Shown: in pieces, positions 3,682 through 29,967 of the stretch
Layout: each line of letters opens with the position of its first letter
How positions within the stretch are numbered: position 1 is the stretch's first letter
Assembly (NCBI RefSeq): GCF_023509525.1
Contig: NZ_JAKNCJ010000007.1
Span: 79,727 to 111,726, forward strand
Length of the DNA stretch: 32,000 bases
Reading direction: 5' to 3'
DNA from: Brachybacterium equifaecis
GTDB taxonomy: Bacteria > Actinomycetota > Actinomycetes > Actinomycetales > Dermabacteraceae
The notes under the pieces: model-generated
Told to the model about the DNA's origin: nothing
Databases searched by the model: none
What the model saw: the letters and a program-made list of their open reading frames with translations, nothing else
Position numbers and translations under genes: made by a program

Positions 3682-3714
3682 GCGGGCCGACGAATAGGTG
3701 CGGCGGTGGGGCCT

Positions 3715-4068
3715 CTATCCCTCATGATCCGGCCCTTGCATCTCCACGTTCCCGTGCTCGTCCGTGGACACCCACGAGGTGATGCCTTGTGCCAGGAACT
3801 CCGCCTCGAGATCGAGGGACGCGCGGGTCTCCTCCATGCGCTTGTCGATCTCGGCGCGCGCGATGGCCTGCTCGCGGTCGGTGAGATCGTCGTACGAGCG
3901 GGTTCCGGTGAGAACGGACTCGACATGGCGCAGGGGGACCCGCTCGAACTCGCGGCCGATGCGGGCCCAATGGGCGATCTGCTGGGCAGGGGTGCGGCCG
4001 TGGCCCGGGGCGATGGCGCTCGCCGCGGCGTAGATGTCTTCCGGCAGGCGGGTCGGTGTGCTCGGCAT
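3715..4068 (-). CDS. ParD-like (ribbon-helix-helix) type II antitoxin family protein
   Basis: Internal ATG at 4066-4068: MPSTPTRLPEDIYAAASAIAPGHGRTPAQQIAHWARIGREFE..., the beta-strand plus two-helix RHH pattern of the ParD_like family. The upstream 47 codons of the track ORF are Arg-rich and unlikely to be coding. Confidence 0.6.
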   Translation of the reverse strand: MPSTPTRLPEDIYAAASAIAPGHGRTPAQQIAHWARIGREFERVPLRHVESVLTGTRSYDDLTDREQAIARAEIDKRMEETRASLDLEAEFLAQGITSWVSTDEHGNVEMQGPDHEG

Positions 4069-4236
4069 GAGGCAAATGTGGCGATCTGCTACGGGATAGG
4101 CCCTTTCCGCCCTCAAGGCGCTGTTAAATGCTCCAGGCGCTGCACGATCAGTGCGACGTCCACCCCTGGAGTGAGGGGTGGGGGACCGGCAATCGGTAGC
4201 TTGGGCCACCGGGGCCGCCTACGACATCACAAGCGC

Positions 4237-4914
4237 TCAGTCGGTGGGGACGAGCTCGCCCTTCGTGCGCCAGATGGCGTGATCGAAGTGGGTGAGGCTG
4301 TCGCCGCGCCCGATGGCCTCGAACGCTTCTTCGACGAGCGCACGTGCACGAGCCGTATCCACGCGCTTGAGCCCGGCCGTTCGCAGCGACCGGTTGACGA
4401 ACTCCAGGATCATTCGGTCCGGCTTCACTCCCGGGATGCCCAGGAGCATCGTGAAGTACTCCGCGGTGACTCCGCCGAGTCCATGTACGCGCCTATACGC
4501 GCGTCGCACGTCGCGGACTCGCGCATCGAGATCCTCAACGCCCTCGGTGATATCGGAGGCGGTGCGCACCTGCGGCGTGAGGTCGAGAAGGTTCTGTGCA
4601 GCCTCGACGACGCACGCGCTCTTCCTGCGACCGGAACTGACTGCACTGGTCATGAAGGACTCGATCTCGCCGGCTCCGAGATCGACCAGCGCTTGGAGGT
4701 CGTCCGCGACCTCTGGGTGAGCCTTGATGAGCGTGCGCGTGCGGCCAAGGACACCGAGAGCCTCGTTCTTCGCGTCGTACTTCGCGCGGATAGAGAACAC
4801 GGCATCCACGAGAGCGGTGCCGATCTGATCGGGCCAGCCCCCGCGGTACTCTGCGAACTCGCTGTCCGGGATCTTCGAGATCTGCGTGATCAGTGCTTCC
4901 AGCTGAGTGGTCAT
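4237..4914 (-). CDS. Hypothetical protein with a helix-hairpin-helix-like motif
   Basis: 225-aa ORF with normal composition. VHGLGGVTAEYFTMLLGIPGVKPDRMI resembles an HhH (endonuclease III-like) element. No catalytic motif recognised. Confidence 0.55.
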   Translation of the reverse strand: MTTQLEALITQISKIPDSEFAEYRGGWPDQIGTALVDAVFSIRAKYDAKNEALGVLGRTRTLIKAHPEVADDLQALVDLGAGEIESFMTSAVSSGRRKSACVVEAAQNLLDLTPQVRTASDITEGVEDLDARVRDVRRAYRRVHGLGGVTAEYFTMLLGIPGVKPDRMILEFVNRSLRTAGLKRVDTARARALVEEAFEAIGRGDSLTHFDHAIWRTKGELVPTD

Positions 4915-5052
4915 CGGAGCGTCCTTGCGTCGATGGATGTGAGTCGTAGGCGATCCGCGGAGCTCCCTATCAGGTGCCGATCAGGGCACTGGACGCGCCG
5001 CATTGCGCAAGCCCAGTATCTCCTGACGAGCGCAGCTCCTCGCCCCCGCTCA

Positions 5053-5736
5053 TCACACCCCCCGCACCGCCGCATCGAACCACCGCGTGATCGACGTGGG
5101 GTGCGTGATCGCGGTGCCGACGACCACCGCGAAGGCCCCGGCCTCCCGGCAGGCCGCGGCCTGCGCCGGCGTGTGCACGCGGCCCTCGGCGATCAGTGCC
5201 GACCCCTCCGGCAGGCTCCCCGCGAGCTCCCGCAGCAGCTCGAGGTCCGGCCCGTCTGTGGTCGGCCGCTTCGCGGTGTACCCGGCGAGGGTCGTGCCGA
5301 TGAGGTCCACGCCGAGCTCCGCGGCGAGCAGGGCGGAGGCGACGCTGTCGGTGTCGGCCATGATCGGCCCGTCCCAGCGCGCGCGGATCTTCTCCACCGT
5401 CTGCGCGAAGCTCAGCCCGTCGGGCCGGGGGCGCTGCGTGCCATCCAGCGCGAGGATGTCGGCGCCCGCGTCGATCACGGCGAGGCAGTGCTCGAGGGTG
5501 GGGGTGATAAACACGCCCGCGTCGCCGTCCTTCCAGATGCCGATCACGGGCACGGAGACTGCGGCCTTCACCTGCGCGATGTCCTCGAGGCCCTGCGCGC
5601 GCACGGCCGAGGCCCCTCCTTCCTCCACCGCCGCGGCGACCTGCGCCATGGTGCGCGGGTCGCGCATGGGCTCGCCGGGGTAGGCCTGGCAGGAGACGAT
5701 CAGCGTGCTGGCGAGGGGCTGGATGAGGGGATGCAT
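5053..5736 (-). CDS. nanE: N-acetylmannosamine-6-phosphate 2-epimerase
   Basis: LIVSCQAYPGEPMRDP...VIGIWKDG...ILALDGT...ADTDS...LIGTTLAGYT...IAEGRVHTP...VVVGTAITHP matches NanE over its whole length (227 aa). RBS GAAGGAG lies upstream. Confidence 0.9.
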   Translation of the reverse strand: MHPLIQPLASTLIVSCQAYPGEPMRDPRTMAQVAAAVEEGGASAVRAQGLEDIAQVKAAVSVPVIGIWKDGDAGVFITPTLEHCLAVIDAGADILALDGTQRPRPDGLSFAQTVEKIRARWDGPIMADTDSVASALLAAELGVDLIGTTLAGYTAKRPTTDGPDLELLRELAGSLPEGSALIAEGRVHTPAQAAACREAGAFAVVVGTAITHPTSITRWFDAAVRGV

Positions 5737-5769
5737 GGATGCTCCTTCAGGGCGAGGACGGGTAGGCGG

Positions 5770-6654
5770 TCACCGGGGCTCGAGGGCGGCGTCCTCGAGG
5801 AGGCGGTGCACGTGCAGGCCGATGTACAGGGTCTCGTCGGGGCTCACGGGGCTGTCCCACTCGGTGGTGAGCAGGCGGGAGATCGCGCCTGCCGCGGCCA
5901 TCACCCCCGGCACCGACTCCTCGAGCGCCGCGCGCACGAGCGGCGGGGCGAGCGGCACGGGCCGCCCGTCGGCCAGACGCACGAAGAGGTAGCGCAGGTG
6001 CGTGGTGAAGCGCGCGGCGGCCTGGCCCTCGCGATCGAGGGGCTCCCGGCGGTGCGCGTCAATGACGTCGAAGATCTGCGAGAGCAGCTGCGTCATCCGC
6101 ACAGTGCGCTCGATCGCGGCGCCCGTGAAGGAGGAGCTGACGAAGTGGAGGGCGAACGCCGTCGCCTCGCTCGCAGGCAGGCGCACGCCGAGGTCGCTCG
6201 CCACGAGATCCAGCGCCCGCTGCCCGGCGGTGAACTCGACGGGGTAGAGGCTGCGCACCTCCCAGACCAGCGGGATGTCGACCTGGATCCCGAGCCTGGC
6301 TCGCCGCACCGCCTGGTGGAGGTGGTCGGCGATCGGCAGCAGAAGCACCTCGGCCCGCTCGAGGCCGAGGAGAAGGTCGGCCGCCTCGACGATGCGCCGG
6401 GCGCAGGCGACCTCCTCCGCGGGGATGTCGGCGAGGGTCCCGGCGGCGGCCTCCGGGGCGACGCCCTCGAGCGGCACGAACACCGCCTCCACCTTTCCGG
6501 CATCGACGAGGGTGCCGCGGCGGGCACCGAAGCCGACGCCGCTGCCCTGGATCACCACCGACCTGCCGGCGGCATCGAGCGCGAGCACGATGTTGTTGTT
6601 GTGGACCTGCTGGACGACCCACCGCGTTTCTCCGCCCACGCCGGGCTCGCGCAT
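5770..6654 (-). CDS. PRD-domain transcriptional antiterminator (BglG/LicT/SacY family)
   Basis: Start at ATG 6652-6654 (or the GTG 15 nt downstream). The CAT-type RNA-binding N-terminus is VVQQVHNNNIVLALDAAGRSVVIQGSGVGFGARRG...VFVP. Two PRD-like regions follow (ALHFVSS...; LYIGLHVHRLL). The track ORF extends 71 codons too far upstream. Confidence 0.8.
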   Translation of the reverse strand: MREPGVGGETRWVVQQVHNNNIVLALDAAGRSVVIQGSGVGFGARRGTLVDAGKVEAVFVPLEGVAPEAAAGTLADIPAEEVACARRIVEAADLLLGLERAEVLLLPIADHLHQAVRRARLGIQVDIPLVWEVRSLYPVEFTAGQRALDLVASDLGVRLPASEATAFALHFVSSSFTGAAIERTVRMTQLLSQIFDVIDAHRREPLDREGQAAARFTTHLRYLFVRLADGRPVPLAPPLVRAALEESVPGVMAAAGAISRLLTTEWDSPVSPDETLYIGLHVHRLLEDAALEPR

Positions 6655-6680
6655 TCCGGGTCCACTCACGCCGGGCCCGC

Positions 6681-7208
6681 TCACTCGGGCCGCAGGGTCA
6701 TGACCGCCGACCCCGCTGGAGCGCCGAGATCCGGGCCGAGCAGCGTGAATCCGTCGGCCGACGTGATGATCACGGGCGTGAGGACCGACGGGATCTGCGC
6801 GCGCACCTGCTCGAGGTCCACGCGCAGGATCGGATCCCCGGCCTCGATCCGCTGGCCCTGCGCGCACAGGGCCGTGAAGCCCGCGCCCTTCAGCGTCACG
6901 GAGTCCACGCCCACGTGCACGAGCACCTCGGCGCCGCTGTCATGGCGGATGCCGACCGCGTGGAGGGTCTCCGGGAGCATCGTGACGGTCCCGGAGACCG
7001 GGGCATGGAACTCCCCGCTCGCGGGGTCGACGGCGAAGCCGGGGCCGACGAGACCCCCGGAGAAGACGGGATCGGGCACGTCTGCGAGCGGCACCAGCGT
7101 GCCCGTGACGGGGGAGAGGACGGCGACCTGCGCCGCCTCTCCTGCCGTGGCCGCTGCCTCCTGGCCGCTGTCAGTGGCTGCTGCGCCGCGGCGCTTGAAT
7201 CCGAACAT
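6681..7208 (-). CDS. PTS glucose-family EIIA component
   Basis: Only the last 175 codons of track ORF 6681..8921 are real: MFGFKRRG...VLSPVTGTLVPLADVPDPVFSGGLVGPGFAVDP...HAVGI...GAEVLVHVGVDSVTLKG. This is the EIIA-Glc fold with both His residues. RBS GGAGAAGGAG lies upstream of ATG 7208. Confidence 0.9.
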   Translation of the reverse strand: MFGFKRRGAAATDSGQEAAATAGEAAQVAVLSPVTGTLVPLADVPDPVFSGGLVGPGFAVDPASGEFHAPVSGTVTMLPETLHAVGIRHDSGAEVLVHVGVDSVTLKGAGFTALCAQGQRIEAGDPILRVDLEQVRAQIPSVLTPVIITSADGFTLLGPDLGAPAGSAVMTLRPE

Positions 7209-7270
7209 GTTTGCTCCTTCTCCGGGGGTCCGCCGAGGGGGCGGGGTGATGATCGCGGGGCGCGCGAGGG

Positions 7271-8911
7271 TCAGTCGTCGTGCCCGATCTTCTCGTTGAT
7301 GATGCTCTTGTAGAGCACGGCCTTGCCGCCGTAGACGGCCTGGACGCCGCCGGCGACCTCGAAGACGTCGACCGCGCCGAGCTGGCGCAGCCGGGCCTTG
7401 TCGACCTTCGCGGGGTCGTGCACCGAGACGCGCAGGCGGGTGATGCAGGCGTCGACGTCCTCGAGGTTCTCCGCGCCGCCGAGGGCCTCGATGATCTGCA
7501 CCGACTCCTGCTCGAGGACCTCCTGCTTGGAGCCCTTCACCGCGGCCGACGACGCAAGGCTCGGGGCGGCAGCGGCCGCAGGGGCGGCGGAGGTCGCTGC
7601 CTCGTCCTCCGCGTCGGCCTCCGCGCCTCGGCCGGGGGTCGCGAGGTTGAAGCGGGTGATGAAGAAGCGGAAGGCCACGTAGTACAGGCCGAACCAGATC
7701 AGGCCCACGGGGATCACGTACATCCAGTGGGTCTTGTCCTGGCCCTGGAGGATGCCGAAGAGGGTGAAGTCGATGGCGCCGCCGGAGAACGTGTTGCCGA
7801 TGCGGATCTGCAGGAGGTCGGCGATGAGGAACGACAGGCCGTCGAGGAACGCGTGGAACACGTACAGCAGCGGCGCGACGAACAGGAACATGTACTCGAT
7901 GGGCTCGGTGATGCCCGTGATGAACGAGGTCAGCGCGACGCCGAGGAACAGACCCGCGAACTTCTTCCGGCGGCCCTTCGGCACGCAGTGGTACATCGCC
8001 AGGCATGCGCCCGGCAGGCCGAACATCATGGTGTCGAAGCGGCCCGCGAAGTACTTCGTGCCCTCGGTGTAGAGCCCCTGGTGGGTGGGGTCGGCGAGCT
8101 GCGCGAAGAAGATGGCCTGGGCGCCGGAGACGCTCTGGCCTGCGACGACCTCGGTGCCGCCGAGCGGGGTGTACCAGAACATCGGGTAGATCATGTGGTG
8201 CAGGCCGACGGCCCCGGAGAGCCGCAGCAGGAACCCGTAGAGGAACGTACCGAACGCGCCGAGCCCGGCGATGCCCTCGCCCGCGGAGACCAGAAGGTGC
8301 TGGAACGGCGGCCAGATGAGAAAGAACAGTGCGCCGATCGGGATCGCGATCAGCGAGACGATGATCGGCACGAAGCGGGATCCGCCGAAGAAGCCGAGGA
8401 TCTGCGGGAGCTGGATGTTGTGGTACCGGTTGTGCAGCCACACAGCGACCGCGCCGATCACCAGCGCGCCGACGATCCCCGTGTCGATGGCGGCACCCTC
8501 GGGGTCGAAGATGGTCAGCAGCGAGGCGGTGGTGCCGGTCATCACGAGGTAGCCGACGATGCCGGCGAGGGCCGCGGTGCCCTTGTCCCGCTTCGCCAGG
8601 CCGATGCACAGGCCGATCGACAGCAGCAGAGCGAGGTTCGCGAAGACCACGGAGCCGGCGTCTGCCAGCACCGTGAACAGGCCCTGCAGGACCGGGTTGT
8701 CGAGCACCGGGTAGGTGGCGACGGTGGTGGGGTTCGACAGCGCCCCGCCGACGCCGAGGAGGAGACCGGCGGCGGGAAGGATCGCGATCGGCAGCATGAA
8801 CGCCTTGCCGATCTTCTGGAGCTGCTTGAACGGAGCGCCGGCGCGCTCCTTGAGGGACCTGGGGGACTCGGCCGGAGCGACGGCGCTCGCCGAGGGGGAT
8901 GCGGAGGACAT
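7271..8911 (-). CDS. PTS glucose/N-acetylglucosamine-family EIICB permease
   Basis: 546 aa. The EIIC core has KIGKAFMLPIAILPAAGLLLG...GITEPIEYMFLF. The C-terminal EIIB has the phospho-Cys motif DACITRLRVSV. Confidence 0.9.
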   Translation of the reverse strand: MSSASPSASAVAPAESPRSLKERAGAPFKQLQKIGKAFMLPIAILPAAGLLLGVGGALSNPTTVATYPVLDNPVLQGLFTVLADAGSVVFANLALLLSIGLCIGLAKRDKGTAALAGIVGYLVMTGTTASLLTIFDPEGAAIDTGIVGALVIGAVAVWLHNRYHNIQLPQILGFFGGSRFVPIIVSLIAIPIGALFFLIWPPFQHLLVSAGEGIAGLGAFGTFLYGFLLRLSGAVGLHHMIYPMFWYTPLGGTEVVAGQSVSGAQAIFFAQLADPTHQGLYTEGTKYFAGRFDTMMFGLPGACLAMYHCVPKGRRKKFAGLFLGVALTSFITGITEPIEYMFLFVAPLLYVFHAFLDGLSFLIADLLQIRIGNTFSGGAIDFTLFGILQGQDKTHWMYVIPVGLIWFGLYYVAFRFFITRFNLATPGRGAEADAEDEAATSAAPAAAAAPSLASSAAVKGSKQEVLEQESVQIIEALGGAENLEDVDACITRLRVSVHDPAKVDKARLRQLGAVDVFEVAGGVQAVYGGKAVLYKSIINEKIGHDD

Positions 8912-8940
8912 GACGGCTCACCTCTACGTGAGTGCGGTCA

Positions 8941-8967
8941 GGTCTCGCCTCCGCGGAGTAACGACCC
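8941..8967 (-). promoter_or_regulatory. RAT (ribonucleic antiterminator) element, target of the BglG/LicT-type regulator, in the PTS operon leader
   Basis: Minus strand reads GGGTCGTTACTCCGCGGAGGCGAGACC. The recalled RAT consensus is GGATTGTTACTGC-N4-GCAGGCAAAACC. The conserved GTTACT, the paired CTCC/GGAG (for CTGC/GCAG) and the AGGC-A-ACC tail are all present. It ends 29 nt before the EIICB ATG. Confidence 0.6.
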
Positions 8968-8981
8968 TGTCAGTGGGGTCC

Positions 8982-9011
8982 AGGGTAGCGGTGGGGTCGG
9001 GTGGGGGACAA
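8982..9011 (-). promoter_or_regulatory. Putative promoter of the PTS operon
   Basis: Minus strand reads TTGTCC (9011-9006), an 18-nt spacer, then TACCCT (8987-8982). The predicted start is a few nt upstream of the RAT, as in other RAT-controlled leaders. Confidence 0.3.
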
Positions 9012-9040
9012 GGACATTGGGCCCGGGGGAAGCGTGTGAG

Positions 9041-9070
9041 GGGCCGACGGGGGAGGGCCGACGGGCCGAC
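9041..9070. repeat. Three overlapping direct copies of GGGCCGAC(GGG) in the 3' flank of the giant gene
   Basis: GGGCCGACGGG at 9041-9051 and 9055-9065, and GGGCCGAC at 9063-9070. Function unknown. Confidence 0.5.
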
Positions 9071-9096
9071 CCCGCCGCTTCCCGTCCGGCCCCCCA

Positions 9097-12000
9097 TCAC
9101 CGCACCGCCGACGACCCCGGCAGGATCCCTCCCTCGAGCATCCGCGCGAACGCCCCCTCCGTCACGATCGGGATGCCATACGTGCGCGCCTTCGCGGCCT
9201 TGCCCGACAGGGAGTCGGGATCGCCCGCGACGACGAGCTTGGTCTTCTTGGTGACGCCACCGGGGTCGAGCCCGAGGCGGCGAGCGTCGGCCTCCCACTG
9301 CTCGCGGTCGCGCTGCATGGAGCCGGTGAAGACGATGCGGTCGCCCGGCTCGAGGGTGATGCCTGCGGTGCGGATGCTCTCACGGCCTGGGGTGATGCCT
9401 TGGGCGCGGTTCGACTCGGCCCGGCTCAGCGCCCGGTCGATATCGGAGTCGGTGAGGCCGAGCGCGGCCGCCGTGCGGTCCATCTCCTCGCGCTCCTCAT
9501 CGGTGACCACGCCATCGGCGAGGACGACCTCGGCCAGGGCGTCGAGGTAGGAGGCGTGCAGCTCGAGCGCCTGATCGCGGGAGAGGCCGAGCTCTGAGGC
9601 AAGCGAGACCAGCTCCTCCTTCTCGTGGTGGCTGAGCACGCCATCGAGCAGGGCGCGCTCGAGGACGGCCAGATACGACTCCGCGTTCAGTCCGGCGGCG
9701 CGCGGGATGGAGGATGTCATCCGCTCGAGCCAACCGGCCGGGGCCACAGATCGGGCCTGCTCGCGGTGCAGCAGGGCCACCCCATCGCCCGCAACGCCCA
9801 GCGCCGGCCAGGTGAAGCGCTGCGCGTCCTCGAGGATCTCCTGCCACGGGAGAGGAGAACCGTCGAGCAGACCCAGGTAGTGCCTGAGGAGTGCGGCAGT
9901 CGCGCGGGCGTCACCTCCGGCGGAGTGAGCGTCCCTCAGATCGATCCCCGCCGCGCCGCAGCAGTCGACGAGTTTGCGTGAGGGAGCCTCCAAGAAGGTG
10001 CCCGACCAGTGCATCGTGCACAAGCTCGGCAGAGGCTCGAGGGGAACGCGGCCGGCGCGGGTCAGCTCGGCGCTCAGGAAGCGCATATCGAAGGGGGCGT
10101 TGTGTGCGACGAGCACGCGACCATCGGCGGCTGCCGCAAGGCGGGGAAGGATCTCGTGGAACGAGGGCGCGGCGGCGACGTCGCTCGCGGTGATGCCGTG
10201 GATGTGGGAGTTCGGAATGTCCCGGCCCGGGTTCAGGAGCGTGGACCACTCGTCCTCGATCTCCCCGGTGGGGGAGACCTGCACGACGCCGAGCTCGAGC
10301 ACGCGGTGGTGGCGACCCGGAGAGAGACCCGTGGTCTCGAGGTCGATCACGGTGTACCCCGACCCTCGGGAAGATGCGGAGGTGCTGCTGACCGCGGCCC
10401 GGCGCCCGTGGCGCGGAGCGGCATCGGCCGAGGGCGCGGGCGACGGCTCGACGGGTTCTGCAGAAGCCGAGGCCTCCGACACGGACTCGACCGTCGGCGC
10501 GGAAGCAGGAGGCACCGCAATCGGCGTACTGGAGTCCTCCGCCGATACCTGGTCGGCGGCACCATCGCCGGGTGAGGGGTCGGCGCCGGCGAGACCGAGA
10601 CGCTTGCGCTCCTCGGCGACGAGAGTCTTCTGCAGGCTGATCTCGTCGGTCTGGATGGCAGAGCCGTGGCCGTCCTTCGTGGCCGACTCGCGTGCGTAGT
10701 CGTCGAACACGGCGGTCTTCTGCGCGAGGAGCTCGACGATGCGGGAGTCCACACCCTCTACGGAGAGCAGCCGGTGCACCTGCACGGAGCGCTGCTGGCC
10801 CATCCGGTAGGCGCGCGCGATGGCCTGCACCTCGAGGGAGGGCTTGATCTGGGGCTCGCAGATGACGACGACGGACGCGGACTGAATGTTCAGGCCCTCG
10901 CCGCCGGCTTCGATCTGGCTGACGAGGACTGCACCCCCGGGCTGGGAGCTGAATTCGTCGACCAGCATCTGGCGTTGCTCGGGGCTGACGGAGCCGGTCA
11001 GCGGGCCGAAAACCGGGCCGGGCAGGAGCCCGACGAGAGAGTCCAGAGCTGCGCGGAAGTACGAGAAGACGAGGACCTTGCGATCGTTCTGGATGGCCTC
11101 TTCGCAGATGTCGATGAGCTGCTCGATCTTCAGGGAGCGCAGGCCTCCGCGCATCGCCGCCTGACGCATCCCCATGAAGTTCCCGCTCGCGACGGCGCTC
11201 TCGTAGTGCTGACGGTCGACGTCGGAGAACTCGACCCAGTCCTCGACCTCCACGAGATCAGGCAGCTCGCGCAGGACGTCCTCCTGGTTCCTGCGCAGAT
11301 AGGCCGGAGCGATGTGCCGACGGAAGGCCGCGGGAAGAAGGCCCTCGGCGGAGCGCGCGAGATCAGGGTTCATGTACCCGAGCAGAGTGCGGAACTCCTC
11401 GAGCCGGTTCTCCAGTGGGGTGCCGGTCATGAGGATGGCGTGCTCAGCTCGGCCGATCTGACTCTGCGCGGCCTTCGTGCGCTGGGCGGCGGGATTCTTG
11501 ATCTTGTGCGCCTCATCGACCACGACGGTGTGCAGCGTGGTGAACTCACCGTTGCGCAGCAGCGCACCGAGGGTCGCGAAGGTCGTGATGCCGACGCCGC
11601 CCGTGGCCTGCCACTGCCGCACCGCCTCATCGCGCCCGGGACCGTGGAGCCGGAACGCAGGCAGCTGCGTCTTCGAGCCGATTTCGCGCATCCAGTTGGT
11701 GAGCACGGACGCAGGGCAGATCACGAGCGTGCGGTCCTGCCCTTGCTTGTGGAGGTGGGTGATCGCGGCGAGCGCCTCGACGGTCTTGCCGAGTCCCATC
11801 TCGTCACCGATGATGACGCGCTTCTGCAGGAGCGCGAAGCGGGCGGCGAACTGCTGGTAGCGCCGCAGGCTCGGCAGCGTGAGCAGGGTGGTGTCGAGGT
11901 CGACGTCCTCGATGAGGCGGATGAGCGGCTCGGGAAGATCGCCGTGGGTGTTCGTGACGATCCGCTTCTCAAAGCCCATCGCGCTGAGCTGGGCGACGTA

Positions 12001-13254
12001 GAGCGCGGTGTTCTCCGCGAGGTCCTGAGTGGGATCAGCGGAGAGACGCGCACGGGCGGTCTCGTCGAGGTGTTCGCCGCGGTGGTTCCGCTCTATCCGA
12101 TCGGCGATGTCGATGAGCCGCTGAGCTGCGCCGCGCGCAACTCCCCCACTGCCCGCGATGATGAGCGAGGGGGAGGACCCGAGTTCGGGAGCGAAGAGGT
12201 CCCGGGGGTCTGTTCTCGAGGCGGAAGGCATTGGTACGGCACCGAGCTCGTGAGCAAAGTGGAGATCCTCGGCATCGTCGCGGTGGATCAGTTCGAGGCG
12301 CTGTACATCATGGAGCAGGGCGGCCAGATGCTGGATCGCCGGATCCTCCAGGCGAGTGAGGTCGATCTGGGCCTGCTCACGTGCCCGGGCCTGGAGTCCC
12401 TGGGCCTCGCGAATGAGTGTGGTCGCCATGGCGTTGCTGATGCCGTTGATGGTGCCGAGTCTGTGCGTGCCGGTGGCGAGGATGTCCGCGACGGTGCGGA
12501 TCCCTGCGCCGGCCAGCGCGCTCGTGGGGAAGCGCCCAGTGATCTGGCTGCGGAAGTGGTCCATGTCGATGTCGGCGAGGGCGCGCTGCGTATCGGCGAC
12601 CAGGACGGCTCGGGCCGCCAGATCCGCTGCGGCGGTGGCATCTTCCGTGCGTACTTCGGCGCTCAGCAGAGTGATCAGGGCAGAGCGGATGCGGAGGGTG
12701 AGCTCAGACGAAAGCGCGACTACGGCATGCGTGCGCGTGGGGCTTGCGACCTCGATGGTGCGGCACAGCTCGGCGGCGCTAGCGGGGCGGGAGACGGGAA
12801 CCTCGAAGGGGAGCTGCAAGGCGCGGGCAGCGTCGGGGTGCTGCGACGTCGCGATCTCGTTCTGGAGGAAGGTGAGGGCGGCCGCTTGGACCTGGGCATG
12901 AGGGCGCCCGCCGAGGATGCGATCGAGGAATCCTCGTGGCTTCGGCTCTGCGTCACTGATCGCGGTGGGGAGGGACGTGCGCATCGCCTCCATCCATACG
13001 GCGGATTCGGGCGTGGGGCTGGGCTGTGCCTGATCACGGCGCAGCGCGGCGACGCCTGACTCATCCTCGGGGGTGAGGAAGCTCCAGGTGAAGTCCGACG
13101 GAGAGCGGGGACTCCCTGGGGGGAGGAGTGCTTCGGCTGCGCGCTGGGCCTTCTGCGTGATCGCGTGACGATCGCTCAGCACACGTTCGATGCGTTCATG
13201 GAGCGTTCGTGCTTGCGCGATGAGCTGCTGGGCGACGTCGGTGTCGGGTTCCAC
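9097..13254 (-). CDS. 1385-aa multidomain protein: unknown N-terminal region, SNF2-family ATPase, DEDDh (DnaQ-like) 3'-5' exonuclease, TerB-like repeats, BRCT domain
   Basis: GTG 13254 with GAAGGA 5 nt upstream. SNF2 motifs: GDEMGLGKT, VVVDEAHKIKN, MTGTPLENRLEEF, QAIARAYRMGQ (aa about 460-850). An Ala/Ser/Pro-rich linker spans aa about 885-965. Exonuclease motifs: VIDLETTGL, VAHNAPFDMRFL, HSAGGDARATA (aa about 966-1130). TerB-like repeats: LLDGVLSHHEKEEL and LADGVVTDEEREEM. BRCT: IVFTGSM...KLVVAGDPDSLSGKAAKA..GIPIV (aa about 1300-1375). Confidence 0.85.
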   Translation of the reverse strand: MEPDTDVAQQLIAQARTLHERIERVLSDRHAITQKAQRAAEALLPPGSPRSPSDFTWSFLTPEDESGVAALRRDQAQPSPTPESAVWMEAMRTSLPTAISDAEPKPRGFLDRILGGRPHAQVQAAALTFLQNEIATSQHPDAARALQLPFEVPVSRPASAAELCRTIEVASPTRTHAVVALSSELTLRIRSALITLLSAEVRTEDATAAADLAARAVLVADTQRALADIDMDHFRSQITGRFPTSALAGAGIRTVADILATGTHRLGTINGISNAMATTLIREAQGLQARAREQAQIDLTRLEDPAIQHLAALLHDVQRLELIHRDDAEDLHFAHELGAVPMPSASRTDPRDLFAPELGSSPSLIIAGSGGVARGAAQRLIDIADRIERNHRGEHLDETARARLSADPTQDLAENTALYVAQLSAMGFEKRIVTNTHGDLPEPLIRLIEDVDLDTTLLTLPSLRRYQQFAARFALLQKRVIIGDEMGLGKTVEALAAITHLHKQGQDRTLVICPASVLTNWMREIGSKTQLPAFRLHGPGRDEAVRQWQATGGVGITTFATLGALLRNGEFTTLHTVVVDEAHKIKNPAAQRTKAAQSQIGRAEHAILMTGTPLENRLEEFRTLLGYMNPDLARSAEGLLPAAFRRHIAPAYLRRNQEDVLRELPDLVEVEDWVEFSDVDRQHYESAVASGNFMGMRQAAMRGGLRSLKIEQLIDICEEAIQNDRKVLVFSYFRAALDSLVGLLPGPVFGPLTGSVSPEQRQMLVDEFSSQPGGAVLVSQIEAGGEGLNIQSASVVVICEPQIKPSLEVQAIARAYRMGQQRSVQVHRLLSVEGVDSRIVELLAQKTAVFDDYARESATKDGHGSAIQTDEISLQKTLVAEERKRLGLAGADPSPGDGAADQVSAEDSSTPIAVPPASAPTVESVSEASASAEPVEPSPAPSADAAPRHGRRAAVSSTSASSRGSGYTVIDLETTGLSPGRHHRVLELGVVQVSPTGEIEDEWSTLLNPGRDIPNSHIHGITASDVAAAPSFHEILPRLAAAADGRVLVAHNAPFDMRFLSAELTRAGRVPLEPLPSLCTMHWSGTFLEAPSRKLVDCCGAAGIDLRDAHSAGGDARATAALLRHYLGLLDGSPLPWQEILEDAQRFTWPALGVAGDGVALLHREQARSVAPAGWLERMTSSIPRAAGLNAESYLAVLERALLDGVLSHHEKEELVSLASELGLSRDQALELHASYLDALAEVVLADGVVTDEEREEMDRTAAALGLTDSDIDRALSRAESNRAQGITPGRESIRTAGITLEPGDRIVFTGSMQRDREQWEADARRLGLDPGGVTKKTKLVVAGDPDSLSGKAAKARTYGIPIVTEGAFARMLEGGILPGSSAVR

Positions 13255-13310
13255 GGGGGTCCTTCGGGAGATGAATGCGAGGGCGCGCCTCTACGGGTCG
13301 CCTGTTGGAA

Positions 13311-13340
13311 GCGCTGGGCCAGCCGAATCCGGCCCAGCGC
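13311..13340. promoter_or_regulatory. Perfect 10-bp inverted repeat with 10-nt spacer in the divergent intergenic region
   Basis: GCGCTGGGCC-AGCCGAATCC-GGCCCAGCGC. It lies 57 nt upstream of the giant gene's GTG and 139 nt upstream of ATG 13479. No gene reads into it, so an operator is more likely than a terminator. Confidence 0.5.
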
Positions 13341-13478
13341 CGGGGCTCTCCGAGAGTACGGGAGGGGTAGGACTATTCGACGCCGTCAGCGACGGTGAGG
13401 CGAGTTGCTCCTGATGAGACATAATGGCCCGAACCCAGATGGACCTTTGACCTCCCCCTTCAGAACGGATGAGCGCCC

Positions 13479-14126
13479 ATGAACAGCACCGATCGGGAAC
13501 TCCCCGGCATCTTCTGCCTGGAGGGCGAGTGGAGCGATGACCTGCAGAGCCGGCTCAGCGTGCGCCCGCTGCTGGAGCTCCTCGAGAGCCTCGAGATCGC
13601 GCAGTCGATCCACAGGGATGTCGCGACGGTAGGAGACTTCGGGTACTACCTGGACAAGTGGCAGGAAGACAGGTACCAGAACTTCGGAATCCTCTACCTC
13701 GCAATGCACGGAGATCGAGAGACCATCCACCTCGGCGGCGATGAGGTCACTCTCGCAGAGCTGGGGGAAGCCCTGAAGGGCCTCTGCGCCGGCCGGGTCA
13801 TCTATTTCGGTTCCTGCTCGACGATGAAGGCGGGCGACAAGGAGCTCATGGAGTTCGCGAAGATGACCAAGGCCCGCGCGGTCGTCGGGTACCGACGTGT
13901 GGTCGATTGGACCGAGGTCGCCCCGTTCGAGCTGGTGCTCCTCCAGGAGCTGGCCACGCGGGTCAGGTCCACCGCCATCTTCCGTAGCCTCAGCGACAAC
14001 CACCCCGTGATGGCGAAGAAGCTCGGTCTGGTCGTGGCGACGAAGAGCGGGGTCCAGAAGGTCGCTCTGCGCGAACGTCTGGGAGGTGAGACCGACAAAT
14101 CGGGGCGGCGCGACGGCCAGCTCTGA
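13479..14126 (+). CDS. Uncharacterised 215-aa protein with a caspase/CHAT-like His...Cys arrangement
   Basis: Clean ORF with normal composition. A hydrophobic strand ends in His-Gly (GILYLAMHGD). About 36 residues later a hydrophobic strand ends in Cys (RVIYFGSCST). The N-terminus GIFCLEGEW begins an alpha/beta fold. The gene is convergent with brxL and divergent from the SNF2 giant. Confidence 0.7.
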   Translation: MNSTDRELPGIFCLEGEWSDDLQSRLSVRPLLELLESLEIAQSIHRDVATVGDFGYYLDKWQEDRYQNFGILYLAMHGDRETIHLGGDEVTLAELGEALKGLCAGRVIYFGSCSTMKAGDKELMEFAKMTKARAVVGYRRVVDWTEVAPFELVLLQELATRVRSTAIFRSLSDNHPVMAKKLGLVVATKSGVQKVALRERLGGETDKSGRRDGQL

Positions 14127-14189: not shown

Positions 14190-16304
14190 TCACCCCTCCT
14201 TGATGTAAGTGATGCCGAATGCGAATACTTGGCGGAACTCCTGGCGGCGGGAGCCGAGGTCGAACTGGCCGCCGGAGCCCTTCTGGAAGATGTCGAGACC
14301 ACGTCCCAGAACGAGCTTCCAGCCGTGGTTCGTGCGGATCGATCGGTCGTGGATGGTTTCGTCCCACATGACGGTGAACTTGATACCGACGGCTGCGGTG
14401 CTGTCCTGGATGTCCCGGAGCATGAGGAGGTGCTGCTGTGCGTATTCGCTGCGGTCTTCCTTGGTCACCAGCGTTACCGCGATCTCGTCGGCAGGGTCTT
14501 TTGCCGCTGCCAGCAGAGCCAACAGGTCAACGAGGTTGCGTCCCTGGTGCGGTAGCCGGATGTAGGGGTCAACGATGGTGATGCTGGTGGCATCGCGCAG
14601 GTAGGGCATGAGCAGCGTTTCGTACGACACCCCACGCTGGTTCTCCTGGAACTCGCGGTGCCCTTCGAACAAGGACGCCGCCACCTCGGGAGCAACTGGA
14701 GTCGCAACTGCGACCTCTGCTTGCGCGGACCCAGGCTCCGCCGACGACCCTACTTTCCCCTTGGCCTCGAGATGGCGAGCCTCGTAGTGGTCGGGATACT
14801 CGTCCTCTTCCAGTGTGGTGACTCCACTCCAGGTGCCTGATTTGTCGGAGTAGCCGAAGTTGACGGCGGCCATTGTGGTGTCGATCCGAAGAATCTGGTC
14901 CTTGACGCGCTTACGTCCTTCGACGGCGAAGCGCAGCAGTTCCTCGATCTCCTCTTGCGTGGCCTCGCCGCCTGGGTAGATGAGCTTCATCAGGCCGGAG
15001 AAGGTCTTGTGGATGCCGTCGCGGTCTCGTGTGGAGATGTCTGAGCCGAGCGTGAAGTGCGGCTGGTAGCGGTCGGAGTAGTCGGTGTTCCGCATGGATC
15101 GCAGCACTTCGGCGATGTAGTCGACGACGAAGCCGTACCCGGAGGAGAACATCTCGCTGCGGATCGTGTCTACCTCCCAGCCGGGGATGTAGAAGTGGAG
15201 CCGGTCGAGGTAGGCGGAGTCGTGATAGGCCTCCGGTAGCTCGTCGAACAGGTCAGAGTGCTTGAGCATGTAGGGCACGTTGTGCGAGGTGTTGCCCACG
15301 AACACCATCGACGCTTCAGCTCCGAGTGTCTCGACGCCGCGGGAGAATGACTTGTTCGCCATGTAGTTCTTCATGATGTCGACGAGCGCCTTGTCGGTGC
15401 GCTTCTTCTTGCCGGCGAACTCGTCGAAGGCCACCACGTCCCAGTAGCCGACAAGGCCGATGCGACCGTTGGCGTTGTTCACGAAGAGCTTCGGAACGGT
15501 GACCTCGCCACCGGAGATCAGCATGCCGTGGGGTGAGAACTCGGAGTAGATGTGTGACTTGCCGGTGCCCTTCGGTCCCAGCTCGACCAGGTTGTAGTTC
15601 CGCTCGACGAACGGGATGAGACGGACGAGTTGCAGCAGCTTGGCCCGTCGTCCGAACATCTCAGGGTTGAACCCGATGGACTGGATCAGCAGATCGATCC
15701 ACTCTTCGGTGTTGAACCCCTTGCGCGACGCGAGGTAGCCCTCGTAGTCGAAGCTCGACATCTGGATGGGCTTCAGGCTCCCCAGAATCCAGGGCACGAC
15801 GCGGGCGTCGTCGCTGTGGAAGTACTCGATGTCGCAGATGCACCAGACGCCGCCGACCAGCAGCTTTGGGTTCGCCTTCACTGTTGCAGGTTCGACGATG
15901 ACGCCGGTGAGCCCGAGGTTGGCGAACGAGGCCTGGTACACGTCCTGCTTGTCGTTCAGCGTCACGATCACCTTGTCGATGATCCGGTGGCGACCCTTCT
16001 CACGGATGGTGGACTTCACCAGTTCCGACTCGTTGCGGTGCACGTAGTGATCGGCGAGAATCTTGCGCACCGCATCGATACCGGCCTGGATCGTTGCCTC
16101 GTCGTCGGAGGCGGCGTATTGGCCAAGCAGGTACTCCAACACGTAGGAGGGGACGATCGCGTTGCCCTTGACGGCCTTCACGAGGTCTTTGCGGACGACG
16201 GAGCCACCGAACAGCAGGTTGATTTTGTAGTCAAGATCGCTCTGCTGCGGTGTGGCTGACTCGGTGTTGCGTTCCTCGCCGGAGTGGCTCTCGGTGTCCG
16301 TCAT
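14190..16304 (-). CDS. brxL: BREX BrxL-like AAA+ protein whose C-terminus is an MIT_C-type PLD-like domain instead of the Lon-like domain
   Basis: Start at ATG 16302-16304 (GAGGAAGC upstream, 14 nt after the pglZ stop). The N-terminus YKINLLFGGSVVRKDLVKAVKGNAIVPSYVLEYLLGQY...KLLVGGVWCICDIEYF is near-identical in pattern to BrxL. Walker A is GPKGTGKSH. The last ~155 aa (TIVDPYIRLPHQGRN...IHDRSIRTNHGWKLVLGRGLDIFQ) match the MITD1 C-terminal domain signature. Confidence 0.85.
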   Translation of the reverse strand: MTDTESHSGEERNTESATPQQSDLDYKINLLFGGSVVRKDLVKAVKGNAIVPSYVLEYLLGQYAASDDEATIQAGIDAVRKILADHYVHRNESELVKSTIREKGRHRIIDKVIVTLNDKQDVYQASFANLGLTGVIVEPATVKANPKLLVGGVWCICDIEYFHSDDARVVPWILGSLKPIQMSSFDYEGYLASRKGFNTEEWIDLLIQSIGFNPEMFGRRAKLLQLVRLIPFVERNYNLVELGPKGTGKSHIYSEFSPHGMLISGGEVTVPKLFVNNANGRIGLVGYWDVVAFDEFAGKKKRTDKALVDIMKNYMANKSFSRGVETLGAEASMVFVGNTSHNVPYMLKHSDLFDELPEAYHDSAYLDRLHFYIPGWEVDTIRSEMFSSGYGFVVDYIAEVLRSMRNTDYSDRYQPHFTLGSDISTRDRDGIHKTFSGLMKLIYPGGEATQEEIEELLRFAVEGRKRVKDQILRIDTTMAAVNFGYSDKSGTWSGVTTLEEDEYPDHYEARHLEAKGKVGSSAEPGSAQAEVAVATPVAPEVAASLFEGHREFQENQRGVSYETLLMPYLRDATSITIVDPYIRLPHQGRNLVDLLALLAAAKDPADEIAVTLVTKEDRSEYAQQHLLMLRDIQDSTAAVGIKFTVMWDETIHDRSIRTNHGWKLVLGRGLDIFQKGSGGQFDLGSRRQEFRQVFAFGITYIKEG

Positions 16305-16318
16305 GGCTGCTGCTTCCT

Positions 16319-18814
16319 CTAGAAATCGAAGTCCGATGTGAACGAGCGCTTGAGCAGGTACTGAGCCCGCTGGTAGACGCGCCACTGGGTGGTGTTGGGT
16401 ATCTGCTCTTCGAGCCGGAACTCGACCGTGCGGTTGTTGAACTCGTTGGCGTCCTGGCTGAGGAGCATCCGTGCACTCTGGTAGCGGTCGCGCTTGTCAT
16501 CGGAGGGTTGGTCGAAGAGCAGCTCGGGCTGATTCGAGATCAGGGTCTCGCCGACGTAGAGGCCGCCGCGTAGCGTGCGAGCCTGGACCTTCTCGCCAAC
16601 CGGCTCGGACTGGAAGAGCTTCACGACGAGCTGGCCGGTGGTGATCTTGTCCGTCTCGGGCAGCACCTCGACGTTGACGGGCCGAGTGTCGCTCTTGCGC
16701 TTCTTGTTGACGGTGAGCACCGGCACGACGATTTCCTGGAGCGCGGCACCGCCGTGAACGAACCGGGAGCCCGCGCCCGGCAGCTTGAGTCGATGGATCG
16801 ACTTGGGAAGCTGCACCTCAAGGTCGCTGCTGAGCCCGAGCTGTTCAGGCTCGAACTTTCGGAACGCGGGATCATCCTTGAGCCCTCGGCCGAGCACGTA
16901 CCGGCGGTTCGTCACGACAAGTTCGTCGCCCTGCGGCTTGGTCGAGAGGTAGGAGGCGTCGGCAAGCGCGGTGTCCTGGTAGAGGAAGCCGTGGTCGGCG
17001 GTCACGAGGATATTCGTGGCGTTCGCATTGGTGAGGCGTTTGATGAGGTCGACCAGTTCGCGCAGCGCGTCGTTGGCGGCCTCGAACACCTGACGTTCGG
17101 TGCGGGCCTTGTCGCCTGCGGCGTCGATCCGGTCGTGGTACACGTACAGCACTTGGTGCGCTCCGTAGAGTTCGCGCAGCTCGCCGCGCGGCATCGCGAG
17201 AACGTCCTCAGCCTGGATCGCGAACCCGTCCACCGGAGCCAGCACCTTGTTGCGGTTCGCCGTCCCGTCGGAACGCTGGCTGTCGACGAGCACCGGGTCA
17301 CCATCGCGTGAGTGGGCAAGCGTCTTGTGCGGAAGCAGGGCGGCCATGCCGAGTTGGGTATAGCTCGGTAGCACGCCGAGCATCGCGTCGAGCTCCGCGT
17401 CGAAGCGGTCTTCCTGACGGATACGTGAACCCAGTTCGTCGGCGACCTCGTAGCGCAGCGCATCAGAGATGATGACGACGGCCTTCCGGCTGCCCTTTCT
17501 GATGATGGGCTTGACGTGATCGGTGAAGAACCTTGCCTGCGGGCGGAGTGCGACTGATCGCCAGTCAGACACGGCATCGACCTGCTGCTGCCAGGCGTTG
17601 CCTAGCTCGTAGAGGTATCGGTTCGCGTAGTGCTTCTCCACCTCGACCCGGAGCGCTTCGAGCGGGCCTGCATACTCGGTTGTGCGGGCGGCAAAGTGAA
17701 ACTGTCGGTACAGCTGGTCGATGCGGAACCAGTGCTTGCGGTACCGGTCGAGTCCGTCATCGAACGACGCGATCTCGAACCTCGCAGTCGCGAGATCACT
17801 CAACAGGTCAGAGGCAGCGGCGAGCGCCGCGTAGAGTTCCCGGTAGCCATCAACCCAGACGCTGCTCTGTCGAGAACGGATGACCTCGGACACCTCGCGT
17901 GCGCTCATTGTCCGCTCGACGATCGCGTGCACCAGCGCGCTGATGATCTTGCGCTCCACGTCCTCGAAAAGATCGTTTCCCACAAGCTCAGCCAGTTCGG
18001 CATCCTCGATGGTGTTGGCGTAGTCGAGACTTTCAGCTGCGCGCCGAGCCAACGTGGCGAGCGCATCGGCGCTGCGTCGGTCGTTGCGCAGACTCGAGAA
18101 GTCAAGCTGGATATTGCGCAGGGCTCCGGGCGTGTCGGACGCAAACCCGTTGATCGCCTGGCGGAACATCCACAGCACGAAGTCATCGACGCTGGGCTCA
18201 CTTGCTTCGTAGCCGTAAATCTTGGCAACACCGGCCCAGTGGAAGCCATCGAGACCCTGCTCGACCAGCGCGGCGTACTTGGTGTGCGCGCCCCGCGCGT
18301 TCTCGATCAGCAACGCACGCGTGAGCTCCAGCATGCTGTGCTCGCGCTGGCCAAGCACCACTGCTGACATCTTCGCTCGCAACCTGTCGGCGTCATCGTT
18401 GGTCGCGAGGAGGGATTTGAGGCTCTGGACTCGCTTGACGGCTCGGAAGAACTTCTCGTGCTCTCGCACCACCTCGTCGATCCCGCTACCGCTGAGACCA
18501 AGGTCTTGGCTCACGAGCGCGGTCCGGTCAGCGGTGAAGACCCCATAGGCCAACTCAAGATCAAGCAACCAGTTGCCAATGCCCGGAGGCACAGGAGCGC
18601 CTCGGTACAGGAGAAACTTGCCCACCGGCTCGTCGTGGAGCACTCGGCTCTTCAACGCGTACTCGTTGTTCTCCACTCGCACAGTGGTCACACCCTTGAG
18701 ATCAAGCGCGTCGAGCTCGACGGCGTACTCGCCGTCAGCGTCGTGCCAGAACACCAGGCGCTCTGACTCGAACCTCTGCTCCAAGTATGGCAGGACAGCA
18801 CTGAGCGAACTCAT
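16319..18814 (-). CDS. pglZ: BREX PglZ (alkaline-phosphatase-superfamily) protein
   Basis: 831 aa. The N-terminus LVFWHDADGEY...FLLYRGAPVPPGIGNWLLDLELAYGVFTAD is typical of BREX-1 PglZ. The PglZ core has VVIISDALRYEV...LPSYTQLGMAALLP...VTADHGF. Confidence 0.95.
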   Translation of the reverse strand: MSSLSAVLPYLEQRFESERLVFWHDADGEYAVELDALDLKGVTTVRVENNEYALKSRVLHDEPVGKFLLYRGAPVPPGIGNWLLDLELAYGVFTADRTALVSQDLGLSGSGIDEVVREHEKFFRAVKRVQSLKSLLATNDDADRLRAKMSAVVLGQREHSMLELTRALLIENARGAHTKYAALVEQGLDGFHWAGVAKIYGYEASEPSVDDFVLWMFRQAINGFASDTPGALRNIQLDFSSLRNDRRSADALATLARRAAESLDYANTIEDAELAELVGNDLFEDVERKIISALVHAIVERTMSAREVSEVIRSRQSSVWVDGYRELYAALAAASDLLSDLATARFEIASFDDGLDRYRKHWFRIDQLYRQFHFAARTTEYAGPLEALRVEVEKHYANRYLYELGNAWQQQVDAVSDWRSVALRPQARFFTDHVKPIIRKGSRKAVVIISDALRYEVADELGSRIRQEDRFDAELDAMLGVLPSYTQLGMAALLPHKTLAHSRDGDPVLVDSQRSDGTANRNKVLAPVDGFAIQAEDVLAMPRGELRELYGAHQVLYVYHDRIDAAGDKARTERQVFEAANDALRELVDLIKRLTNANATNILVTADHGFLYQDTALADASYLSTKPQGDELVVTNRRYVLGRGLKDDPAFRKFEPEQLGLSSDLEVQLPKSIHRLKLPGAGSRFVHGGAALQEIVVPVLTVNKKRKSDTRPVNVEVLPETDKITTGQLVVKLFQSEPVGEKVQARTLRGGLYVGETLISNQPELLFDQPSDDKRDRYQSARMLLSQDANEFNNRTVEFRLEEQIPNTTQWRVYQRAQYLLKRSFTSDFDF

Positions 18815-23365: not shown

Positions 23366-23377
23366 GCGTCTTGTCTC

Positions 23378-29957: not shown

Positions 29958-29967
29958 GAGGAAGACC

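Follow-up and report, generated by a model that had tools for sequence, protein, structure and literature searches.

A (HhH)2-SNF2 translocase fused to a DEDDh-TerB-BRCT exonuclease in Brachybacterium equifaecis: a candidate single-chain form of a two-protein defence module

The 32,000-nucleotide stretch of Brachybacterium equifaecis DNA that was analysed (contig NZ_JAKNCJ010000007.1, positions 79,727 to 111,726; hereafter the window) carries on its minus strand an unbroken open reading frame (ORF) of 1385 codons with a GTG start (9097..13254, according to the ORF list and translation), in which a SNF2 motor with a helix-hairpin-helix (HhH) element is joined to an exonuclease. Judging from its sequence relationships, there is an even chance that the encoded protein is an autonomous translocase-coupled 3'-5' exonuclease acting against foreign DNA, i.e. 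the single-chain form of a two-protein defence module. A six-part architecture had already been proposed in an earlier, sequence-only reading of this DNA, and is confirmed by Pfam, PADLOC, alignment and structure models. The parts are the following (aa, amino acid residues):

9097..13254, minus strand: whole gene, (HhH)2-SNF2 translocase fused to a DEDDh-TerB-BRCT exonuclease (ORF translation; orthologues P0001, P0241 and P0003)
13260..13265, minus strand: Shine-Dalgarno sequence GAAGGA (read in the sequence; kept in L001)
11890..13254, minus strand: N-terminal family-specific helical region, aa 1-455 (alignment across the SNF2 family; AlphaFold model)
12370..12537, minus strand: (HhH)2-like DNA-binding element, ~aa 240-295 (Pfam HHH_5, superposition on Rad51/Dmc1, invariant residues)
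10585..11889, minus strand: SNF2 ATPase core with both RecA-like lobes, aa 456-890 (Pfam, PDB sequence matches, invariant motifs)
10369..10584, minus strand: low-complexity linker rich in P, S and A, ~aa 891-962 (read directly in the sequence)
9817..10368, minus strand: DEDDh (DnaQ/RNase T-type) 3'-5' exonuclease domain, ~aa 963-1146 (Pfam, PADLOC, catalytic columns, Foldseek)
9403..9684, minus strand: TerB-like helical tandem repeat, ~aa 1191-1284, with DGxxxxxEkxxL...LGL twice (Pfam TerB; helical in the model)
9133..9354, minus strand: BRCT domain, ~aa 1301-1374 (Pfam BRCT; secondary structure of the model)

Residues 1-890 align over their full length with an actinobacterial SNF2 family (38-49% identity), with the N-terminal region and all motifs in common, and most members of this family are ~880 aa long and carry no nuclease. 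The motor contains everything that defines a SNF2 (Swi2/Snf2) ATPase, i.e. the N-lobe (Pfam SNF2-rel_dom at 468-696, E=6.3e-37, 127.7 bits vs a cut-off of 24.9), the Helicase_C lobe (709-819, E=5.2e-15, 56.1 bits vs a cut-off of 23.5), Walker A (GLGKT, with K490), a DExH motif (the DEAH box at 580-583) and the motif VI arginines (R814 and R817). All of these motifs are invariant in the family alignment, and the sequence matches in the PDB are to SNF2 proteins, including 1z63 and Sth1 (best 1.8e-36). PADLOC assigns aa 187-873 to its sub-models for DpdE (PDLC02852, 4e-168) and DrmD (PDLC02627, 3.4e-127). Since no DrmA, DrmB or other Dpd protein was found among the 19 window ORFs scanned, and since the NCBIfam scores are far under their cut-offs (86 vs 500 for DpdE; 75.5 vs 950 and 65.6 vs 610 for the DrmD models), these labels denote a related SNF2 subfamily and not membership of the Dpd or DISARM systems. 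In a DISARM locus the SNF2 gene is accompanied by DrmA, DrmB (DUF1998) and a DrmMI/MII methylase, and DpdE is the helicase of a dpdA-K cluster that modifies DNA with 7-deazaguanine. The region preceding the motor (aa 1-455) aligns along the whole SNF2 family and is modelled by AlphaFold with a predicted local distance difference test score (pLDDT) of 89.3 and a predicted template modelling score of 0.78. A Foldseek search of this region against the PDB gave no whole-domain match at E<=0.001, and a PADLOC scan of it alone gave no match either. The HhH-like element that the sequence-only reading had picked out here is backed by Pfam HHH_5 at 246-285 (E=1.7e-5, under the curated cut-off), by the invariance of G271 and A284 in the family alignment, and by the superposition of ~60 residues (~240-295) on the (HhH)2 N-terminal domain of Rad51/Dmc1 (root-mean-square deviation 1.3-1.7 A, Foldseek probability 0.99-1.0).

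Beyond a linker that is predicted to be disordered, and whose counterparts in P0001 and P0003 differ in sequence and length, the C-terminal half begins with an exonuclease domain in which Exo I DxE, Exo II D and Exo III Hx4D, i.e. all that defines the DEDDh type, are present. D971 and E973 (Exo I), D1056 (Exo II) and H1110 (Exo III) correspond to the invariant columns D22, E24, D107 and H161 of alignment A2, and D1115 (Exo III) to the nearly invariant column D166. PADLOC gives a DEDDh match of 4.8e-37, and the fold matches retrieved by Foldseek are the exonucleases of DinG and PolC, RNase T and DnaQ, with Staphylococcus aureus DinG at the top. Pfam places RNase_T at 969-1123 of the whole protein; scanned alone, the C-terminal 436 residues give RNase_T at 3.8e-26 (93 bits vs a cut-off of 24), TerB (PF05099) at 28.1 bits (gathering cut-off 24.4, covering only profile positions 77-116 of 118) and BRCT (PF00533) at 22.2 bits (cut-off 21.3). 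In the whole-protein scan TerB reaches 23.1 bits, which is under its cut-off; it is matched in 20 of 21 family members and BRCT in 15 of the 21. The last 75 residues of the model, i.e. the BRCT region, show a beta-alpha-beta-beta-alpha-beta-alpha order (pLDDT ~90), and the motif D[PN]xSxSGKxxKA is invariant; a Foldseek search with the C-terminal half, in which the exonuclease domain dominates, retrieved no BRCT-specific structural match.

This C-terminal half is matched end to end by the PADLOC profile PDC-S48 (PDLC05027; aa 965-1374 against positions 4-406 of 411, E=4.8e-155 to 1.6e-156), and its 420 aa are 48-62% identical to PDC-S48-type family members, with the same three domains and invariant residues. 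By sequence it thus belongs to PDC-S48, although PDC-S48 is a stand-alone gene of ~410-430 aa, whereas here it makes up aa 963-1385 of a 1385-aa protein. The PDC set comprises 145 candidate systems that were chosen for being embedded in BREX, DISARM, type I restriction-modification (RM) or Hma loci (bioRxiv 10.1101/2024.01.29.577857). The exonuclease family is widespread (927 matches), and a PADLOC scan for Shango and other TerB-containing systems gave no match.

The beginning of the gene is well marked. Its GTG start codon (13252-13254) is preceded by the Shine-Dalgarno sequence at a distance of 5 nucleotides (nt), both are kept in the 73%-identical orthologue at locus L001, and 21 homologues have their N-termini aligned with residue 1. 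P0001 (73% identity), P0241 and P0003 are orthologues over the full length. The public 960-aa model from B. equifaecis (P0002, 100% identical to part of the ORF) begins at the internal M426 (ATG 11979), which has no ribosome-binding site, and leaves off 425 conserved N-terminal residues; given the conserved start and the position of residue 1 at the N-terminus of the family, this model is too short. It differs only in its start and still covers both halves.

That the fusion is an assembly or frameshift artefact joining two genes, which the sequence-only reading had allowed for, could be argued from the shorter public annotation and from the existence of close relatives with two separate genes, but its probability is negligible. 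The same single ORF is found on four independent contigs (the window, L001, L002 and L176), at 50-73% identity (to the window protein 73% for L001, 50% for L002, and 61% over aa 456-1385 for L176) and with differing linkers and neighbours, and the 960-aa model itself spans both halves. Fusion is rare: in an exhaustive HMMER pass, both halves were matched by 3 of 1.84 billion cluster representatives. The nearest SNF2-only proteins (P0004-P0013, ~50% identity, mostly from Brachybacterium) have the exonuclease as a separate gene, i.e. a 422-427-aa DEDDh-TerB-BRCT gene located 4 nt upstream of the SNF2 gene on the same strand, an arrangement seen in five lineages (L083, L084, L085, L166-168 and L169-170; in L166 the split operon covers 8719-12769). 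The SNF2 and exonuclease trees, which are quick neighbour-joining distance trees without support values, both place the fused group next to the split-operon group as sister clades; the two halves have co-evolved and are adjacent in both forms. In the split form the exonuclease comes first and SNF2 second, whereas in the fusion SNF2 precedes the exonuclease; with the order thus inverted, a lost stop codon cannot yield the fusion, and the association must have survived a rearrangement. Such a retained association argues more strongly for functional coupling than would read-through of a stop codon. It is these two halves that form the real and informative partnership, which the sequence-only reading missed, as it did the fact that both are catalogued.

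In B. avium (L085, CP022316, 8594-9996) the exonuclease gene upstream of the SNF2 gene consists of two overlapping ORFs of 233 and 234 aa, probably owing to a frameshift or because it is a pseudogene, and the SNF2 protein may therefore persist there without a working partner.

The surroundings of the fused and split loci vary and abound in defence genes: GmrSD, ScoMcrA-HNH, PIN/Phd, a type III restriction enzyme, a PLD-like gene, McrBC, nSTAND1 and HNH_2 occur nearby, as does an ISL3 transposase, and no third gene is conserved around them. In the survey of orthologues that had been proposed on the basis of the sequence, fused and split forms alike were found in defence-rich surroundings and, the window apart, not beside the 215-aa gene that adjoins the fusion gene there (see below). 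The link with BREX is not general, since no BREX genes are present in the examined DNA of the other fused or split loci (the other fused contigs being short). Stand-alone exonuclease genes have a type ISP restriction-modification enzyme, GmrSD, HsdM, Wadjet JetA/JetC and DUF4011 helicases as neighbours; conserved synteny was not found among the exonuclease homologues, whose neighbours are almost never the same. Among 72,556 plasmid records, a full-length homologue occurs in only one, that of the conjugative Arthrobacter plasmid pZXY22, where it sits in a co-directional run of small unknown genes, while phage records contain the exonuclease domain only and never the full architecture.

The SNF2-only relatives have a recurrent neighbour of their own. 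An HmaA-like gene lies within 10 kb of a member of the SNF2 family in 20 of 80 genome loci, and in ~16 of the 80 actinobacterial genomes the two stand head-to-head, 46-191 nt apart (among L003-L037; e.g. L008, 5873-9349 / 9395-12073), with HmaB, an embedded GmrSD-like gene and HmaC following HmaA where annotated. Besides HmaA, these Hma / type-1 BR loci thus have a further SNF2 gene, the ~880-aa (HhH)2-SNF2 gene. A term search of the BREX/BR survey PMC12839542 did not find this family mentioned. In Knoellia remsis (L037) a stretch of 23 kb holds PDC-S48, DUF6642, SNF2, a Schlafen-like helicase, an HNH gene and HmaA/B/C. The same locus has, between HmaB and HmaC (17789-19630), a 613-aa gene with a GmrSD_N domain and weak matches to HEC-05 and PDC-M55C, and similar, unannotated genes of 560-620 aa (clusters F29 and F30) occupy comparable positions in several other Hma loci.

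If the protein is indeed a translocase-coupled exonuclease, the helical/(HhH)2 N-terminus together with the SNF2 motor would bind double-stranded DNA (dsDNA), rather than RNA, and track along it at the expense of ATP, while the BRCT domain, perhaps together with TerB, would target or gate the enzyme where it meets a DNA end, a nick or a partner protein. The tethered DEDDh domain could then strip nucleotides from the exposed strand in the 3'-to-5' direction, by which foreign DNA with free ends or nicks would be progressively destroyed, the DNA of the host being spared and the cell protected. Plausible targets would be injected phage genomes, replication intermediates, or DNA nicked by neighbouring modification-dependent systems. 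Several lines of evidence point to such a role, i.e. the match of both halves to defence-library models (PDC-S48 and the DpdE/DrmD sub-models), the Rosetta-stone evidence of fused and adjacent split forms that are sister clades in both trees, the variable and defence-rich context (stand-alone exonuclease homologues beside defence genes included), the head-to-head position of SNF2-only relatives and HmaA, the intactness of all catalytic motifs, and the precedent of defensive SNF2-nuclease fusions (HmaA and ZorD). Of the roles considered in the sequence-only reading, defence is accordingly favoured over core repair, on account of the PDC-S48 match, the Hma-flanking SNF2 family and the variable defence-rich neighbourhoods. 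A more far-reaching version, in which the protein would be an autonomous, modification-free immune machine that senses ends or nicks through BRCT and feeds a proofreading-type exonuclease by ATP-driven translocation, in the manner of WRN or DinG, and in which the SNF2 family would also be a fourth Hma component, is conceivable but doubtful.

A number of observations weigh against a defensive translocase-exonuclease. Sister-clade SNF2 genes at L173 and L174 have no exonuclease, and in none of 80 metagenomic loci is this SNF2 found near the exonuclease, which implies that each half can work alone and that the partnership is restricted to a clade. No methyltransferase or other device for telling self from non-self is conserved with the module, which leaves discrimination unexplained. 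Among characterised proteins, the exonuclease half is most closely related to mycobacterial DnaQ, a replication proofreader, and DEDDh enzymes can act on RNA as well. Most fusion-bearing contigs are only 5-9 kb long, and the context that can be read from them is limited accordingly. The PDC systems are explicitly still candidates (bioRxiv 10.1101/2024.01.29.577857), and the literature search found no paper on protection by this gene or its homologues.

HmaA and ZorD are among the known defence proteins closest to the fusion. HmaA is a defensive fusion of SNF2 with a PD-(D/E)XK nickase (PMC11232893), and ZorD is annotated in PADLOC as SNF2 with an Mrr-like nuclease; all three share the logic of a single chain, encoded in defence loci, that unites a dsDNA translocase with a nuclease. 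The gene of HmaA lies beside a DUF1156 methylase and a DUF499 ATPase, and ZorD, whose nuclease is C-terminal, is encoded beside zorABC. However, the nuclease of the fusion is a DEDDh 3'-5' exonuclease and not an endonuclease, TerB and BRCT have been added, and the N-terminus is (HhH)2 instead of the TUDOR that PMC12839542 gives for HmaA. Only the SNF2 core is matched by ZorD (NCBIfam 107.5 vs a cut-off of 1500), with no ZorA, ZorB or ZorC match among the scanned window ORFs, and by HmaA (1.6e-13), with no HmaB or HmaC in the window. While the (HhH)2-SNF2 family is often head-to-head with HmaA, the window holds no Hma, DISARM or Dpd partner genes. The helicases of BREX types 2 and 3 (BrxHI and BrxHII) give weak core matches (5.8e-22 and 1.8e-19), whereas the BREX in the window is of type 1, and a divergent gene stands between it and the fusion gene.

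The exonuclease half finds its best NCBIfam match (1.6e-49) in mycobacterial DnaQ (Rv3711c / MSMEG_6275, NF004719), in which DEDDh is likewise followed by a C-terminal BRCT. The score falls well below that of an equivalog (168.6 bits vs a cut-off of 389), and mycobacterial DnaQ has neither the TerB insert nor SNF2, whereas the fusion has both. S. aureus DinG offers another likeness, since one polypeptide combines a DEDDh exonuclease with a nucleic-acid motor there too, and WRN is a further helicase-DEDDh fusion. These have a strand-separating motor of the XPD/RecQ kind and an N-terminal exonuclease, as opposed to the SNF2 dsDNA translocase and C-terminal exonuclease found here. The earlier statement that no described system has this combination holds, as the literature search found no description of the domain combination, PDC-S48, the split operon or the Hma-flanking SNF2 family. 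Both halves have already been catalogued separately, while the combination, the split operon and the Hma-flanking family appear to be undescribed in the searchable literature.

Instead of acting by itself, the protein might assist modification-based systems (BREX here, Hma elsewhere) as an auxiliary effector, enlarging the nicks made by PglZ or HmaA on unmodified DNA to lethal gaps. Its position beside a complete type 1 BREX, the definition of PDC candidates by embedding in BREX, DISARM, type I RM and Hma loci, the head-to-head arrangement with HmaA and the clustering of PDC-S48, DUF6642, SNF2 and HmaA/B/C in Knoellia would all agree with this, as would the fact that HmaA is a nickase (PMC11232893) and that PglZ is reported as a nicking nuclease in PMC12839542. 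Nevertheless, L085, L166 and L169 (with full 10-kb flanks) show neither BREX nor Hma-type genes, the other fused loci lack BREX as well (though their contigs are short), the guanine-cytosine (GC) content of the fusion gene differs from that of the BREX block (~0.67-0.72 vs 0.60-0.65), and the divergent gene in between means that the two are not co-transcribed. This dependence on modification systems is therefore considered unlikely.

A chromosomal role in replication or repair, with a DnaQ-like exonuclease being brought to stalled forks or lesions by BRCT and a SNF2 remodelling motor, seems distinctly unlikely. In its favour are the resemblance of the C-terminal half to mycobacterial DnaQ, a core replication proofreader with a clamp-binding motif whose BRCT is essential for the antimutator role in Mycobacterium smegmatis and is modelled on DnaE1 (PMC11348249), and the helicase-DEDDh fusions (S. 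aureus DinG) among the top fold matches. It is opposed by the low NF004719 score, the extra TerB module, the patchy distribution without conserved synteny, the defence and mobile genes in the neighbourhood, the frameshifted exonuclease gene in B. avium and the occurrence of a homologue on a conjugative plasmid. This plasmid copy, together with the transposases and integrase-like genes near some loci, would rather fit a protein that serves mobile elements, either by processing incoming plasmid or element DNA or by attacking competing elements or host defences. But with a full-length homologue in a single plasmid record and in no phage record, and with most copies being chromosomal and in defence islands, such a service is improbable.

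Upstream of the fusion gene lies a divergent neighbour, separated by an intergenic region; the features of this region and the neighbour are the following:

13311..13340, no strand assigned: perfect 10-nt inverted repeat with a 10-nt spacer (arms GCGCTGGGCC at 13311-13320 and GGCCCAGCGC at 13331-13340)
13352..13367, minus strand: conserved upstream block CCCCTCCCGTACTCTC with a -10-like hexamer of the form TAnnnT, TACTCT (comparison of the window with L001)
13479-14126, plus strand: DUF6642 protein of 215 aa, divergent from the fusion gene (Pfam DUF6642, 7.4e-20)

The perfect inverted repeat noted previously is real, and roughly estimated only ~0.03 such repeats would be expected by chance in this intergenic stretch, but the closest orthologous upstream region, that of L001, does not conserve it, and its sequence was not seen in the L037 intergenic region when read by eye. 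In the block CCCCTCCCGTACTCTC, 15 of 16 bases are the same in the window and L001, whereas the rest of the upstream region aligns poorly, and we take its TACTCT to be -10-like from what is generally known of actinobacterial -10 boxes. The block is consequently a putative promoter element, and the inverted repeat, being located downstream of it, probably lies in the 5' untranslated region. Scans for a sigma-70 consensus promoter and for an intrinsic terminator gave no match.

The 215-aa protein is not the regular partner that had been suspected in a two-gene module of the fusion with this His/Cys gene. DUF6642 genes are found in the window, in L037 (7461-8042) and in L175 (7764-8492), but neither the other three fused loci nor any of the split-operon loci examined has one; a divergent pair with the SNF2 gene recurs only in Knoellia remsis, and on a Brevibacterium plasmid DUF6642 stands beside an Abi gene without the module, for which reasons a partnership was rejected. 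Its AMHGD and FGSCS motifs look like a caspase-like His/Cys dyad, judging by the sequence, and the protein might itself be a defence candidate. Its neighbours are rich in defence genes, with BrxL in the window, the Schlafen-like helicase in Knoellia and the Abi gene on the Brevibacterium plasmid.

The placement of the fusion gene between a phosphotransferase system (PTS) and BREX was described correctly: PTS EIICB (7271-8911, minus strand) is on one side, and on the other side DUF6642 is followed by brxL-pglZ-[PDC-S02]-pglX-brxC-brxB-brxA, which make up a complete type 1 BREX (14190-28121; BrxA, BrxB, BrxC, PglX, PglZ and BrxL). The GC content is ~0.69-0.74 in most 1-kb bins up to ~11 kb (the PTS/NanE side), ~0.67-0.72 in the fusion gene and 0.56-0.66 from 14 to 32 kb, and because it is lower across the BREX block than in the fusion gene, the two probably arrived separately. 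There is no tRNA gene in the window, and no integrase among its annotated ORFs. Between pglX and pglZ (18811-19857, minus strand) a 348-aa PD-(D/E)XK gene matches PADLOC PDC-S02 (8.6e-120), which makes it a textbook 'embedded' candidate defence gene. BrxL (14190-16385, minus strand) ends in an MIT_C / phospholipase-D-like domain (aa 585-729, 7.9e-43), a Pfam scan found no Lon-protease domain in it, and it corresponds to the BrxL-HKD variant described in PMC12839542. Beyond brxA (29223-30095, minus strand) lies a class I S-adenosylmethionine-dependent methyltransferase with a weak PADLOC mad2 match (2.6e-13). On the core side, 3715-4209 (minus strand) encodes a ParD-like antitoxin domain (4.5e-6), and the 1197-aa ORF at 3706-7299 (plus strand), which has no family match, is a spurious antisense ORF of the kind typical of high-GC DNA, since it overlaps real minus-strand genes (a PRD antiterminator at 5770-6867 and NanE at 5053-5736).

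Some further genes occur beside exonuclease homologues. In L105 (3436-11218), L111 (3456-11212) and L171 (10001-17153) the exonuclease gene directly adjoins, on the same strand, a giant helicase-nuclease of the architecture DUF4011-AAA_11/12-MTES_1575-DUF3320 (plus HEPN in L105), while in L097 the helicase is ~2 kb from the exonuclease. This DUF4011 superfamily 1 helicase was considered as a second partner and judged to be co-located in the same islands, the three adjacent loci amounting to two lineages (L105 and L111 are 94% identical). A PD-(D/E)XK-RNaseH-helicase gene in five exonuclease loci was likewise dismissed, as it is not adjacent and comes from related metagenomes. Genes with an OGG domain (PF21790), 50% identical to each other, are located near the exonuclease gene in L084 (1699-2646) and L171 (18214-18968).

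The fusion and its split relatives tie a catalogue entry, PDC-S48, to a specific motor protein, and in doing so turn it into a testable hypothesis. They also draw attention to a SNF2 family, widespread in actinobacteria and with an N-terminal domain of novel structure, which is a regular head-to-head neighbour of Hma and goes unmentioned in the BREX/BR survey that was searched. Should the protein act in repair after all, the finding that BRCT-bearing DnaQ proteins work at actinobacterial replisomes would be extended. If, on the other hand, it does protect its host, a processive exonuclease effector would be added to a field dominated by endonucleases, and the BRCT and TerB domains would gain a role in prokaryotic immunity.

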